Source: a virus
Taxonomy: Duplodnaviria > Heunggongvirae > Uroviricota > Caudoviricetes
Length of the DNA: 64,000 nt
IMG/VR virus record: IMGVR_UViG_3300012943_000001
Location: 39,743 to 103,742 of that record
Strand: one strand, 5' to 3'
The notes under the pieces: model-generated
Databases searched by the model: none
Told to the model about the DNA's origin: nothing
Seen by the model: only the letters and a program-made list of their open reading frames with translations
Translations under genes and position numbers: made by a program
Shown: in pieces, positions 40,339 to 44,317 of the stretch
How positions within the stretch are numbered: the first letter of the stretch is position 1
Layout: every line of letters starts with the position of its first letter

Positions 40339-40976
40339 TGAAGTCTTATATCCAGTCTACGAGTAGGGTTGAAGTAAAGAATTCTTTGAACGGTCATGAT
40401 ACCGTAGGGGTTCCGTTACTTCATTTGAACACGACAGAAATTATTTCTGCCGTAAATAAAGGCATCGCTTTGGTTTTCGCTTCTTCTGGCGATACCAATG
40501 GAGTCGTCTATTACATAGGTACAAACGGTCTACAAGTCGGATTCTCAAACCCGCATCCAGCGAAGATAACCAACTCCGCTTTAAGCGTCACTCAAGGCTC
40601 TGTTACCATTCTTACAGATAGACAAGAACAAGCCTTCTCTACAAGCTCATCTGGTGACAATTGGATTAAGATTGACTTGGGGCCAACACGTACACTTGCT
40701 GTCAATAAATACACACTAAGAAACAGAGGTGAAGGCGGCTGGCATATTCGCAATTGGAATCTCCAAGGCTCCAACGACAATACGACTTGGACAAATATTG
40801 ACGAGAGAACGAACGACTCAACGATTAGTTCGGGCGGAGCTTGGGGAGCGTTCGACACTCCTCTTTCTGGGGCCTTTCGATATCTCCGCGTAATCATGAC
40901 CGGAAATAACAGTTCAGGAAATCGCGAGCTAACTATCTGCGAATACGAGTTTTACGGAATTCTCTTCGAAAGTTAA
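40338..40976 (+). CDS. Discoidin/F5-8C-like domain protein, paralog family C (1 of 3)
   Basis: GDTNGVVYYIGT..NP..W.KIDLG..YTLR..RNWNLQGS.D...W..ID..FRYLR..L.ICEYEFYG. Confidence 0.7.
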   Translation: MKSYIQSTSRVEVKNSLNGHDTVGVPLLHLNTTEIISAVNKGIALVFASSGDTNGVVYYIGTNGLQVGFSNPHPAKITNSALSVTQGSVTILTDRQEQAFSTSSSGDNWIKIDLGPTRTLAVNKYTLRNRGEGGWHIRNWNLQGSNDNTTWTNIDERTNDSTISSGGAWGAFDTPLSGAFRYLRVIMTGNNSSGNRELTICEYEFYGILFES

Positions 40977-41032
40977 ATTTTTCTTTTGACAAAACCCAAA
41001 TTTCTGGGTAACTTATAGTAGTTCTTTTTAAT

Positions 41033-41372
41033 GGGCGTGTTCATGGATTCGCCTTCCGTTGTATTTGAAAGTGGCAAGCAGAAGAATGATTACCGTCTTC
41101 TTAAAAAACGTGGTCAAATTACAAACGACCTTTGTATGCTTAAAGCGTCCTAACCGACCTTTCGTCAACCCATAGAAGCCTGATAAGTGGAGTTTGACGT
41201 TAAACATTGGGCAAAACTATTTACGCTCAGGGTTGTTGGTACAACTAGAGAAAAACTGCCCAGAGTAGGTCGCTCGTTAGCGAAATGGGTTGTACTTAGA
41301 AACGAGACAAGCTTGTAGATGCTGTAGAAGAATACGGGAGATACAGGGGTTCGACTCCCCTCACGTCCACCA
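41033..41372 (+). ncRNA. ssrA: tmRNA (one-piece), predicted tag (A)TNDLCMLKAS*
   Basis: 5' GGGCGTG..GGATTCG pairs with 3' T-arm GGGGTTCGACTCCCC + CACGTCC-ACCA (G3.U70 pair); 340 nt; internal ORF 41121..41153 after CAAATT; upstream TTGACA-17-TAACTT. Confidence 0.92.
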
Positions 41373-41378
41373 ATTTAT

Positions 41379-41888
41379 ATGTTTCACAACAAAAAACACT
41401 ATCCTCAGTTGGCTGTTCTCGAAGACAACTTTGAGGTCATACGCAAAGAGTATGAGCAGATTAAAAAACTGAGAATGTACAAGTGGCCAGAAAAGGAAAA
41501 ATACAAGGGTAGCTGGTCAACTTTTGGACTCTATCATAACGGCAGGAAGTTAAAGACAAGTTCTAAGCAATGTCCGAAGACGGTAGAGTTGATTGAAAGT
41601 ATGGGTAAGGTCGCTATGGCAGGCTTTTCCATCATGGCCCCGGGCACACAGATTCATGCTCACGTAGATAAGGTTCCCACGTTTGTTTATAGGGTGCATC
41701 TTGGTATTGATATACCAAAGGGAGAGTGTAGTTTTTGGGTCAATGGTGCATGTAAAAAATGGGGCGACGGCGAGGCATTTTTATTTGACCCTTTACTGGT
41801 TCATAGTGCATGGAACAGGACCACGGAAAACAGAGTTATTTTACTCTTAGATTTTGAAAGCTTTAATCCGCCAGCCTCCAGACAGTAA
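41379..41888 (+). CDS. Aspartyl/asparaginyl beta-hydroxylase family 2OG-Fe(II) oxygenase
   Basis: CPKTVELI, GFSIMAPGTQIHAHVD (HxD), RVHLGI, W.DGEAFLFD...HSAWN....R.ILLLD. Confidence 0.9.
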   Translation: MFHNKKHYPQLAVLEDNFEVIRKEYEQIKKLRMYKWPEKEKYKGSWSTFGLYHNGRKLKTSSKQCPKTVELIESMGKVAMAGFSIMAPGTQIHAHVDKVPTFVYRVHLGIDIPKGECSFWVNGACKKWGDGEAFLFDPLLVHSAWNRTTENRVILLLDFESFNPPASRQ

Positions 41889-42069
41889 TTCTTCATCATA
41901 TGCAGCGGCCTATGACGCAGCGTATAGATTTAACTACAAATTGTCGTATGTACAAGTTAGGTTTTATATGAAGTACCTTGGCAAATTGCAGTGGACCAAC
42001 TATAAACAAGGCTACAAAGACGGGCACGCCAGAAGAAAAATCCGAAATAGGATGGGCCAAAACTCTTGA
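41854..42069 (+). CDS. Small hypothetical protein
   Basis: Tyr-rich 71-aa ORF, start uncertain. Confidence 0.3.
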   Translation: MKALIRQPPDSNSSSYAAAYDAAYRFNYKLSYVQVRFYMKYLGKLQWTNYKQGYKDGHARRKIRNRMGQNS

Positions 42070-42087
42070 TTACGGGTAAAGATAATC

Positions 42088-42348
42088 ATGAAGTTATGGC
42101 TTACAAAATGTCATGGTGGTCGCTATATGGTTACGTTATTCAAACCAATTATTGCGAGGATTAGAGGAACGGAGTATATGGATGCGTTTGAAAAGGTGGG
42201 AGAACCAATTGCGGTAAAACATCTTTGTGAGCCGGGTATAAAATCCTTGCTCGGCCTGACGCTTGAACCGCTCACTCCAACGAAAATCGAGATAACGGCA
42301 AACGTTCTCGTCACTCTTGAAAAAGAAGAAGATGAAGATTCTAGTTGA
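42088..42348 (+). CDS. Hypothetical protein
   Basis: 86-aa ORF. Confidence 0.55.
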   Translation: MKLWLTKCHGGRYMVTLFKPIIARIRGTEYMDAFEKVGEPIAVKHLCEPGIKSLLGLTLEPLTPTKIEITANVLVTLEKEEDEDSS

Positions 42349-42372
42349 CATTCTTGAAACTCTAAGTATTAT
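42345..42372 (+). promoter_or_regulatory. Sigma70-like promoter for the ncRNA cassette / Ro60 locus
   Basis: TTGACA-16-TATTAT with nested TTGAAA 9 bp downstream of the -35. Confidence 0.6.
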
Positions 42373-42402
42373 AGGTATAGTTCTTTTAAGTTAATTTCAA
42401 AC

Positions 42403-42545
42403 GTCCCATTCTCGGGACTACAAGGAAGCAAGGTAGAGGCGTTCATCGTCATTGCTATATGAAACGCCAACCCCACTGTCGCAAGACAAGGGAGCAGAGC
42501 CCGTAAGGGCGATGACCAGTAATGTTCATCAAACTGTCCTCTCCA
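42403..42545 (+). ncRNA. Candidate novel structured RNA (multi-hairpin, pseudoknot-capable)
   Basis: GTCCC/GGGAC hairpin; GGCGTTCAT/ATGAAACGCC stem; TGTC-GCAA-GACA and GCCC-GTAA-GGGC GNRA hairpins; loop GTCATTGC complementary to GCGATGAC. Confidence 0.6.
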
Positions 42546-42563
42546 ATTTTCTCCTTAAAATTT

Positions 42564-42610
42564 GCCCGACCTTTTGTGGTTCGGAGGTTTGAATCCTCCA
42601 TCGGGCACCA
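42564..42610 (+). ncRNA. tRNA-like minihelix (acceptor stem + T arm + ACCA; no D or anticodon arm)
   Basis: GCCCGA..TCGGGC-ACCA acceptor stem and GGAGG-TTTGAAT-CCTCC T arm, joined by only about 12 nt. Confidence 0.7.
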
Positions 42611-42659
42611 TTTTGGCTTCATCTCTGACGTTTTTCATTTTTCGTCGGCATGAAGCTAA

Positions 42660-42680
42660 GGCCGTAACTATAACGGTCCT
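42660..42680 (+). ncRNA. Exact copy of 23S rRNA helix 69 (GGCCGTAACTATAACGGTCCT)
   Basis: Identical, as I recall the sequence, to E. coli 23S nt 1906-1926; no other rRNA sequence flanks it. Confidence 0.8.
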
Positions 42681-42682
42681 TT

Positions 42683-42723
42683 AAGGCGATTTCGTTTCAT
42701 CACGAGTCGCCTTTTTTATTTTT
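42683..42723 (+). terminator. Intrinsic terminator ending the ncRNA cassette, upstream of the Ro60 gene
   Basis: AAGGCGAT-TTCGT..ACGA-GTCGCCTT stem followed by TTTTTTATTTTT. Confidence 0.75.
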
Positions 42724-42754
42724 AACACTAACACATCAAGGAATAAGGAAACAT

Positions 42755-44317
42755 ATGGCAAAGTTTAATACAAAGTCAAATAGGGTTAAGGCAGCAAAGC
42801 AAGTACGTGCATCCAAGGGTGCGACTAAGAGCAAGGTTGTAATCAATCGTGCGGGCGGCTTTGCGTACTCAATGAAGGATAAGACGGAACTCGTCACGCT
42901 TCTTCTAACCTCATTCGTAGCAGACAGTTTCTACGAAAAGGGTCAGGATACGGCAAAGCGTGTCCAAGAGCTTATCGCAAAAATTCCAGACAAGCAATTC
43001 GTCGCAAAGGCTGCGGTCTACGCACGTAAGACGTTTGGTATGCGTTCCATCTCCCATCTTGTTGCGGGCTTGCTTGCACAAGAGGCATCCATCAAGGGTC
43101 AGGAGTGGACAAAGACCTTCTTCGACAAGGTAGTCCACCGTGTTGACGACATGTTGGAAATCATTTCCTTCACACAGAAGGACGGTAAGAAGCCATTGCC
43201 AAATTCCTTGAAGAAGGGTTTCCGCTCTGCGTTCGACCGTTTCGATACGTACCAATTGAGCAAGTACCAAGCTGACAACGCAGGTTTGAAGCTTGTAGAT
43301 TTGGTGAACATCATTCACCCAATCCCAACCGAGCGTAACAAGGACGGCTTGAACGCACTTATCAATGGTAAGTTGAAGAACCTTACAACGTCTCAAACGG
43401 CGTTGACTAACATTGGTCAGGTCGCCAAGAACGACGAAGAGAAGGCGGAGCTACGTAAGGACTATTGGAAGACCGTTCTAACCAATCGTAAGCTTGGCTA
43501 CACGGACCTAGTTCGTTCCCTTACGAAGATTGCCAAGGACGCACCAGATGCGGTTGATTTGGCGGTCGCAACGCTTACAGACGAAACTCTAATCAAGAAG
43601 AGTCTTGTAATGCCATACCAGCTTTATATCGCCATGAAGATGGTCGAGAAGGAGCTTGGAGCCACCTCTGAGTGCCGTAAGCTTTCTGCGGGCCTAGCAA
43701 AGGCCGTAGACATCTCATGCAACAACGTTCCTACCTTCGGTGGTAAGACCGTAGTTGTCGTTGACCGTTCAGGTTCTATGGATAGCCCGCTTTCCAATGG
43801 AAAGACGGACGTTCTTAAGATGTCTGAGGTAGGCACACTTATGGCGTTGTTCCTTGCACGTAACAACGACACTGACTTCGTTATCTTCGGAGACGACGCT
43901 AAGTATGTTCCTTACAATGCAAACGATTCCATCTTGACATCCGTCAAGACACTCCTTGGTTACAATCAGGGCTATGGTCACGCGGGCAACTACAACGTTG
44001 GTCACGGAACGAACTTCCACGCAATCTTCAAAACATTGAACAAGAAGTACGACCGCGTTATCATCTTCTCTGACATGCAGGGTTGGGCGGGCGGTCACTA
44101 CAGCCTAAATGGCGACATTGACTGGTACGCAAAGAAGTATGGTGCAAGGCCATTCTTGTATAGCCATGACCTTCGTGGTCACGGTTCTCTTCAAATTCCA
44201 GAAGAGAAGACATTCGTATCTGCCGGATTCTCTGAAAAGATTTTCGACGTTATGAAGCTTCTTGAGCAAGACAAGGAAGCGTTGGTCAACTCAATCGAAA
44301 AAGAGGTAACTCTTTAA
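42755..44317 (+). CDS. rsr: Ro60/Rsr TROVE-domain RNA-binding protein with vWA domain
   Basis: INRAGGFAY, AVYARKTFGMRS, FDTYQLSKY, MPYQLYIA, VVVDRSGSM (MIDAS), VIIFSDMQ, AGFSEKIF; strong SD AAGGA. Confidence 0.93.
   Translation: MAKFNTKSNRVKAAKQVRASKGATKSKVVINRAGGFAYSMKDKTELVTLLLTSFVADSFYEKGQDTAKRVQELIAKIPDKQFVAKAAVYARKTFGMRSISHLVAGLLAQEASIKGQEWTKTFFDKVVHRVDDMLEIISFTQKDGKKPLPNSLKKGFRSAFDRFDTYQLSKYQADNAGLKLVDLVNIIHPIPTERNKDGLNALINGKLKNLTTSQTALTNIGQVAKNDEEKAELRKDYWKTVLTNRKLGYTDLVRSLTKIAKDAPDAVDLAVATLTDETLIKKSLVMPYQLYIAMKMVEKELGATSECRKLSAGLAKAVDISCNNVPTFGGKTVVVVDRSGSMDSPLSNGKTDVLKMSEVGTLMALFLARNNDTDFVIFGDDAKYVPYNANDSILTSVKTLLGYNQGYGHAGNYNVGHGTNFHAIFKTLNKKYDRVIIFSDMQGWAGGHYSLNGDIDWYAKKYGARPFLYSHDLRGHGSLQIPEEKTFVSAGFSEKIFDVMKLLEQDKEALVNSIEKEVTL

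Follow-up and report, generated by a model that had tools for sequence, protein, structure and literature searches.

The window (the whole stretch of 64,000 nucleotides analysed here) stems from a phage record that is complete, with 205,462 bp and direct terminal repeats, and it carries a Ro60 gene preceded by a non-coding cassette (Table 1). The homologues of this Ro60 protein are named 60 kDa SS-A/Ro by their sources, and tblastn matches phage 'Ro-like' proteins. An element of 47 nt that resembles the top half of a tRNA, here called minihelix, is situated within the 405-nt gap between the genes (42349-42754); it has the same orientation as Ro60, the start codon of which lies 145 nt downstream of the element's end, and the linkage to Ro60 was found in 12 of 12 relatives. 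The gap forms a single transcription unit, which is bounded by a promoter and a terminator-like hairpin. At the cassette start the promoter scan gave two overlapping matches (42345-42381), while no further promoter-like site was found on the plus strand between this region and the Ro60 start, and the hexamers TTGAC...TAGAAT are conserved in the relatives. The hairpin with the U run at the other end was missed by a simple terminator scan, probably because its loop exceeds the limit of 3-8 nt set in the scan. The sequence conservation of this terminal hairpin goes far beyond the needs of a terminator. The hexamer GGCGAA, which is near to the published Ro60-binding motif 'CGAA', occurs in it in 9 of 12 copies, and judged from its sequence the hairpin is possibly a docking or autoregulation site for Ro60. 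The gene order of tmRNA, Asp/Arg hydroxylase gene, non-coding cassette and Ro60 is kept in most of the fetched relatives (L003-L012).

Table 1. Features of the Ro60 locus and parts of the minihelix; positions refer to the window.
Feature	Position	Strand	Remarks
tmRNA gene	41033-41372		1.2 kb upstream of the element; Rfam 87.9 bits; missed by ARAGORN
Sigma-70-type promoter	42345-42372	+	TTGACA, 16 nt, TATTAT; 11/12 consensus positions
Y-RNA-like module, ~140 nt, multi-hairpin	42423-42557	+	closed by pairing of block 1 (42423-42448) with block 2 (42530-42557)
Single-stranded leader AAATTT	42558-42563	+	U at -1; directly 5' of the proposed RNase P cut site
Acceptor stem, 5' strand GCCCGA	42564-42569	+	pairs with 42601-42606
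Middle segment	42570-42582	+	C7 plus 12 nt (42571-42582), in place of D and anticodon arms; includes a conserved GUGGU
T arm GGAGG-TTTGAAT-CCTCC	42583-42599	+	5-bp stem 42583-42587/42595-42599; 7-nt loop 42588-42594
A66 and acceptor 3' strand TCGGGC	42600-42606	+	A66 at 42600, opposite C7
Discriminator A and genome-encoded CCA	42607-42610	+	both unpaired
U-rich 3' trailer TTTT	42611-42614	+	
Downstream variable hairpin modules	42614-42682	+	same transcript; fold as hairpins; unalignable between relatives
Terminal hairpin and U run, likely terminator	42683-42725	+	almost invariant in 12 relatives; before the Ro60 ribosome-binding site
Ro60/TROVE (Rsr-like) gene, 520 aa	42755-44317	+	Pfam TROVE E = 3.9e-10; weak Ro60 vWA match

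The module upstream of the minihelix shows similarities to Y RNAs. Alignment-based folding with RNAalifold (11 relatives) returned the closing stem between blocks 1 and 2 as well as internal GNRA hairpins with compensatory changes, and the whole Y-like/intergenic region folds with z = -5.4. Such a pair of matching end blocks would correspond to the general design of Y RNAs. A conserved GNRA hairpin with compensatory stem changes is located inside this RNA at 42495-42506 (alignment A4, columns 98-109); its sequence is CCC-AGCAAU-GGG in most relatives, compared with GCCC-GTAA-GGGC in the window. Furthermore, block 2 ends in the invariant ...UUUUCUCCUUA, which pairs with the Shine-Dalgarno-like AGGAAG of block 1; as far as can be seen from base complementarity, a pairing with AAGGA, the ribosome-binding site of Ro60, would likewise be possible. 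The first residue of the minihelix, G1, follows only 2-7 nt 3' of the Y-like closing stem, and the distance is reduced to 2 nt in four relatives.

The minihelix itself (42564-42610) is composed of a 6-bp acceptor stem, a C.A mismatch at position 7:66 (C42570/A42600) and a 5-bp T arm with the loop UUUGAAU. When the 47-mer is folded alone, it adopts this structure with an MFE of -19.6 kcal/mol and z = -2.8; the fold is retained in both the MFE and the centroid structure of the whole 421-nt intergenic transcript, and the ACCA is unpaired in all single-sequence folds. The initial annotation had described an acceptor stem with C.A mismatch, a T arm, an encoded ACCA and a gap of about 12 nt at this place, and every one of these parts is present in the sequence and in agreement with the fold. 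It had also suggested to run ARAGORN, which made no tRNA call at the element and called no tRNA gene in the window. Likewise, the Rfam tRNA model (RF00005) did not match the minihelix, neither at the gathering score nor at E up to 10. The silence of both tools is explained by the missing D and anticodon arms: the acceptor 5' strand is separated from the T stem by only 13 nt, which excludes a canonical tRNA with D arm, anticodon arm and anticodon. The sole overlapping Rfam match, to HPnc0260 in antisense direction, is at noise level with 26 bits versus a cut-off of 59. Several single-sequence folds preferred a 5-bp acceptor together with a 3-bp D-like hairpin, but the covariation seen at pair 6:67 speaks for 6 bp in the acceptor, and a 2-bp CC/GG mini-hairpin that is possible in the middle segment is without covariation support. 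An alanine identity (G3.U70) was also rejected, because pair 3:70 is C-G, U.G or U-A; it is C3-G70 in the window and is not conserved in the family.

Relatives were gathered via the Ro60 protein and a conserved neighbouring motif, with the latter yielding 2 true relatives among 9 matches in a metagenome scan. In total, 12 genomes with full intergenic sequence were available, the Ro60 proteins of which are 57-76% identical, and the minihelix is found at the same position in all 12. The ACCA is invariant in 12 of 12. The pair G1-C72, the two G-C pairs beside the T loop and the loop pattern UUYRAAU are invariant as well, whereas acceptor pairs 2-6 are free to change in sequence; the T loop is degenerate in two of the relatives (L010, L011). 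In the alignment of 11 copies, pairing is complete (100%) in both the 6-bp acceptor and the 5-bp T stem, and double (compensatory) changes occur at 8 of the 11 pairs, namely at 5 of 6 in the acceptor and 3 of 5 in the T stem. The pairing of the whole structure in these 11 copies reaches 97% of cells, compared with 75% in shuffles and at most 51% when the partners were slid. The acceptor consists of 6 bp plus the C.A mismatch in most copies, a full 7-bp stem is found in L006, L012 and L018, and the middle segment, which measures 13-15 nt in all relatives, is of either the GUGGU or the GUUAUGC type. The residue at -1 is U in the window, as it is in 8 of 12 copies, and the trailer after the CCA reads ATTT, CTTT or TTTC in the relatives. 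Since the adjoining downstream modules cannot be aligned between relatives, the conservation of the minihelix is selective.

A generic top-half scanner, which searched for a T hairpin and a perfectly paired 6-7-bp acceptor with its 5' strand 6-21 nt before the T stem, followed by NCCA, gave exactly one match in both strands of the 205-kb genome and one match in 20 shuffled genomes, corresponding to a chance expectation of about 0.05 per genome. Each genome has one minihelix, located without exception in the Ro60 leader and not in the tRNA island. A protein-coding explanation was rejected, because no conserved open frame extends across the element. Hence, the minihelix is a real and selected RNA structure, not a product of chance or decay. 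This is in line with the former view of a compact top-half mimic instead of a decayed tRNA end, as the short form with its covarying stems and invariant ACCA persists in 12 diverged relatives; a full-length tRNA at this position, which the initial annotation had regarded as the mark of a deletion pseudogene, was looked for and found in 0 of 12.

Outside this clade the minihelix was not detected. Its covariance model (R1) and the generic scanner found none in 80 IMG/VR phage Ro60 loci with 39-48% identity, and model R1 found none in LR745206, the Ro60 of which is 45% identical. The absence from the 39-48% loci indicates that the element is clade-specific. The blastn search with the cassette against the phage record collection gave no match, an exact DNA pattern of the minihelix gave none in IMG/VR, and the single-protein locus search in that database returned no relatives. 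The search with a block-2 pattern in IMG/VR resulted in three matches, all of which are due to chance and lie in coding DNA. However, a near full-length tRNA-like cloverleaf was found in L033, a locus with a 53% identical Ro60, where it is placed inside the homologous Y-like closing stem (L033:326-398). It scores 50 bits against the Rfam tRNA model and is labelled 'tRNA-???' by ARAGORN; its anticodon loop has 6 nt and its 3' end is ACAA, not ACCA. A 3' minihelix is not present in L033, and the cloverleaf occupies a different position in the cassette. In other phages, ordinary tRNA genes occur about 40-120 nt from Ro60 on the same strand (L035:1166-1384; L070:1373-1446; L073:2957-3027), as in csAssE-Sib, where tRNA-Tyr and tRNA-Lys precede the Ro gene. 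These findings indicate that tRNA-likeness is a recurring and movable property of phage Ro60 leaders, of which the minihelix represents one stable solution.

The same findings make an origin of the minihelix from a tRNA plausible and speak for regarding it as a decaying tRNA pseudogene or a chance hairpin without function. We consider this very improbable. The short form has been kept with compensatory changes and intact ACCA in genomes whose neighbouring modules have diverged beyond alignment and which are not near-identical strains, the expected number of chance matches is low, and the element is not covered by a conserved reading frame. Moreover, a parent tRNA is not found in the genome. 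A recent derivation from one of the phage tRNAs was rejected, because even the closest of them has 14 differences in the 31 positions compared. Nor is the minihelix the product of a recent deletion.

The most relevant context of the minihelix, of which the initial annotation made no use, is its strict linkage to the Ro60 gene and the Y-like RNA. The nearest known RNAs are the YrlA-type Y RNAs of bacteria and phages (Chen et al. 2014, PMC4201824; Wang et al. 2018, bioRxiv 312249). The YrlA model RF02553 (gathering threshold 69 bits) did not match in the region 40800-43000 at E up to 10, and in the whole genome it gave only matches of 16.4 bits or less, all of them inside the tRNA island; none was obtained in the 12 relatives at the gathering threshold and none in 20 more distant phage Ro60 loci. 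The motif GNCGAAN0-1G near the 5' end of YrlA is the presumed contact to Rsr. It is absent from the window cassette and occurs in 2 of 12 clade members (the window and 11 relatives) at inconsistent places. Because this published Ro60 motif is absent, the upstream RNA can only be regarded as a putative Y RNA. The phage element shares with YrlA a tRNA-like module in a small RNA beside Ro60/Rsr on the same strand, here as there within about 4 kb, and a T arm with a canonical T loop. However, YrlA is permuted, with the order T arm, closed acceptor-like stem-loop and D arm, and this unit resides inside the Y stem, whereas the phage element keeps the tRNA order with an open acceptor and an encoded ACCA, has neither D stem nor anticodon arm, and is situated outside and 3' of the Y-like stem. 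The D arm of YrlA is conserved with tRNA-like invariant bases, while the phage element possesses only a segment of 12-13 nt in this place. A free CCA end is absent from most YrlA RNAs (bioRxiv 312249). In M. smegmatis, YrlA and YrlB are encoded upstream of rsr and several partner RNAs are processed from one precursor; RNase P cleaves this YrlA both in vivo and in vitro, and the RNA acquires a CCA end (PMC4201824).

Three other types of RNA are comparable in some respects. The mammalian mascRNA of MALAT1 and its counterpart at MEN-beta are tRNA-like elements directly 3' of a non-coding RNA, where the cut by RNase P makes the 3' end of the upstream RNA and frees a small, CCA-ended RNA that does not decode. 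These elements are eukaryotic, form a full small cloverleaf, receive their CCA after RNase Z cleavage and have no link to Ro60, whereas the CCA of the phage element is encoded and its processing would be a parallel drawn from its structure. Synthetic minihelices made of acceptor and T arm serve as model substrates of RNase P, CCA-adding enzyme, some aminoacyl-tRNA synthetases and EF-Tu. They have the coaxial acceptor and T stem, the T loop and the 3' RCCA in common with the phage element, but are continuous 12-bp hairpins from the laboratory, while the phage element is a natural gene in which a conserved insert of 13-15 nt occupies the 7/49 junction and position 7:66 is mismatched in most cases. 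Finally, the tRNA-like domain of tmRNA also combines an acceptor stem, a T arm, a stemless remnant of the D-loop and an encoded ACCA, and the phage's own tmRNA shares the 3' trailer with the minihelix; however, the acceptor strands of tmRNA are separated by about 330 nt around the mRNA module and pseudoknots, and it carries the alanine identity pair G3.U70. The minihelix is thus the equivalent of the tRNA-like domain found in bacterial Y RNAs, but with its parts in native order and with no anticodon: it belongs neither to YrlA nor to the tRNAs as they are defined, yet it would work like the tRNA-like parts of Y RNAs and like mascRNA. Since tRNA mimicry by Ro60-bound Y RNAs is already known, the minihelix adds a new variant of Ro60-linked tRNA mimicry.

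The phage is rich in genes related to tRNA. Outside the window, 48 tRNA genes are located at 156-179 kb (G000:C1:156400-179101), and 47 of them have an encoded CCA. The flanks of the tRNA genes are uniform, with TTAT before and NTTT after the gene; among the 47 CCA-ending genes, T is found at -1 in 39, at +2 in 41 and at +3 in 43. The minihelix is flanked by TTT before G1 and TTTT after the CCA, and the tmRNA gene has a matching trailer. Because of this agreement of the flanks, the element should look to the cell like the end of another tRNA gene. Furthermore, the phage encodes a class II CCA-adding-type nucleotidyltransferase of 418 aa (L117:724-1980; G000:C1:196723-197979), in which the PolyA_pol head, RNA-binding and tRNA_NucTran2_2 domains were recognized. 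Its best NCBIfam match is CCA tRNA nucleotidyltransferase with 246 bits, which is under the cut-off of 290 bits. RtcB, RNase PH and PNPase were searched for in the phage genome and none of them is encoded there.

Taken together, the minihelix most likely acts as a handle for the tRNA-trimming enzymes of the host. More specifically, we give a somewhat better than even chance to the view that RNase P and 3' trimming cut at the element, which would split the precursor and free a CCA-ended mini-tRNA. In such a scenario, the cassette would be transcribed from the promoter at 42345, and the host RNase P would recognise the stack of acceptor and T arm together with the 3' RCCA and cut between U42563 and G42564. 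The 3' maturation by the host, with an endonuclease cut in the U-rich trailer and subsequent exonuclease trimming, would halt at CCA42610, the end of which could be repaired by the CCA-adding-type enzyme of the phage. Three products are predicted: the Y-like RNA of about 140 nt, the free 47-nt mini-tRNA with its CCA end, and the downstream hairpin modules together with the Ro60 mRNA. The element would then serve as tRNA punctuation for the Ro60 partner RNAs. For bacterial RNase P and CCA-adding enzymes, a minihelix of acceptor and T arm with RCCA is all that a substrate needs. The features of a minimal RNase P substrate, that is a coaxial stack of acceptor and T stem (about 12 layers) capped by a T loop, a single-stranded 3' RCCA and a favourable residue at -1, are all found in the phage element. 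A function as processing signal, one of the two proposed in the initial annotation, would fit the context given by the tRNA-gene-like flanks and the precedent of the M. smegmatis YrlA.

Several observations, among them the missing Ro60 motif of the upstream RNA, speak against such a punctuation. First, the 2 nt between the Y-like stem and G1 in four relatives would make a short leader for RNase P. Second, most copies have 6 bp plus C.A and not a clean stem of 7 bp; in the case of YrlA, a 7-bp stem was considered decisive for the RNase P cleavage by Chen et al. (PMC4201824). In addition, a bare 12-bp hairpin would be enough for punctuation, hence the conserved middle segment of 13 nt with GUGGU hints at a further role. 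It may be that the segment, either as GUGGU or as GUUAUGC, mimics the contact of the D-loop to the T loop, in which case the tRNA elbow would matter and not the helix alone.

The short distance to the Y-like stem and the conserved middle segment, which suggests that a folded elbow matters, would fit a different reading, in which the minihelix stays joined to the Y-like RNA as its 3'-terminal (or internal) tRNA-like domain. There it might represent an exonuclease-resistant, CCA-repairable cap or a docking site for an effector, as thought for YrlA in particles of Ro60, Y RNA and PNPase. Chen et al. proposed that the tRNA fold and the CCA end shield Y RNAs from exonucleases (PMC4201824). In the Thermus phage phiLo, two Y-like RNAs from upstream of the Ro60 gene are bound by Ro60, which together with them also binds the host PNPase (PMC12135203), and the phage studied here has a CCA-adding-type enzyme but no PNPase or RNase PH of its own. 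Nevertheless, a permanent attachment, the main alternative, appears to us possible but rather unlikely. The presence of a full unit of acceptor and T arm, preceded by U and ending in RCCA, in a cell that also processes the 47 similarly flanked tRNA genes of the phage, leads to the expectation that RNase P will cut, and after this cut nothing visibly tethers the minihelix to the Y-like RNA, in contrast to the M. smegmatis YrlA with its two base-paired halves.

If the cut takes place, the free mini-tRNA itself could be the product of interest, acting, as the initial annotation had also proposed, as a decoy or sponge for readers of the acceptor end such as toxins of the CapRel/FaRel2 or MenT type or for other top-half binders; the link to Ro60 would then mean co-expression only. 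Conservation extends to all top-half determinants and the free ACCA but not to the sequence of acceptor pairs 2-6, which fits a recognition by shape and not by sequence, and the phage invests heavily in the supply and repair of tRNAs with its 48 tRNAs, tmRNA and CCA-adding-type enzyme. However, the restriction to the Ro60 leader in 12 of 12 relatives, with no copy in the tRNA island, argues against a decoy, and a single copy under one promoter would have to compete with the 47 CCA-ended phage tRNAs for any such toxin. A toxin or defence context was also not identified, and this use of the element is in our opinion improbable.

A broader idea, which we regard as unlikely, includes the remaining parts of the cassette. 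It might represent a set of look-alikes of RNA ends from the translation machinery that are made by tRNA-type processing and used with the phage Ro60, with the mini-tRNA as a working product and not just as punctuation. The end of block 2, UUUUCUCCUUA, presumably resembles the 3' end of 16S rRNA (anti-Shine-Dalgarno CCUCCUUA), and the hairpin GGCCGTAACTATAACGGTCC at 42660-42680 presumably matches helix 69 of 23S rRNA; the modules at this helix-69-like position differ completely between the relatives. The RNase P cut would leave the upstream RNA with ...CUCCUUA(A) at or near its 3' end, which would be 16S-like if the presumed resemblance holds, the minihelix would supply a free tRNA CCA top half, and the downstream hairpin would contribute the presumed likeness to helix 69. 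Such a set could occupy or redirect RNA quality-control nucleases of the host or RNA-targeting defence toxins during infection.

Returning to the preferred role of the minihelix as a handle for tRNA processing, the reason for the tRNA mimicry by bacterial and phage Y RNAs is an open question in the field; the cases published so far are permuted and for the most part without a free CCA, and no partner of their tRNA-like part is known. The phage clade offers a much simpler version, a self-contained unit of 47 nt that follows the native order of a tRNA, has its CCA encoded, is flanked like a real tRNA gene and stands between the modules of a Ro60 leader. With one short RNA and one protein, two ideas become testable: that tRNA-processing enzymes shape the partner RNAs of Ro60, and that the CCA end matters to Ro60 biology. 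Elements of this kind are missed by gene finders that are tuned to cloverleaves. Two minor observations concern the tRNA island itself, which includes one tRNA with the anticodon CTA that carries the ARAGORN label Pyl and is possibly an amber suppressor, as well as one odd element with a 2-base 'anticodon'.
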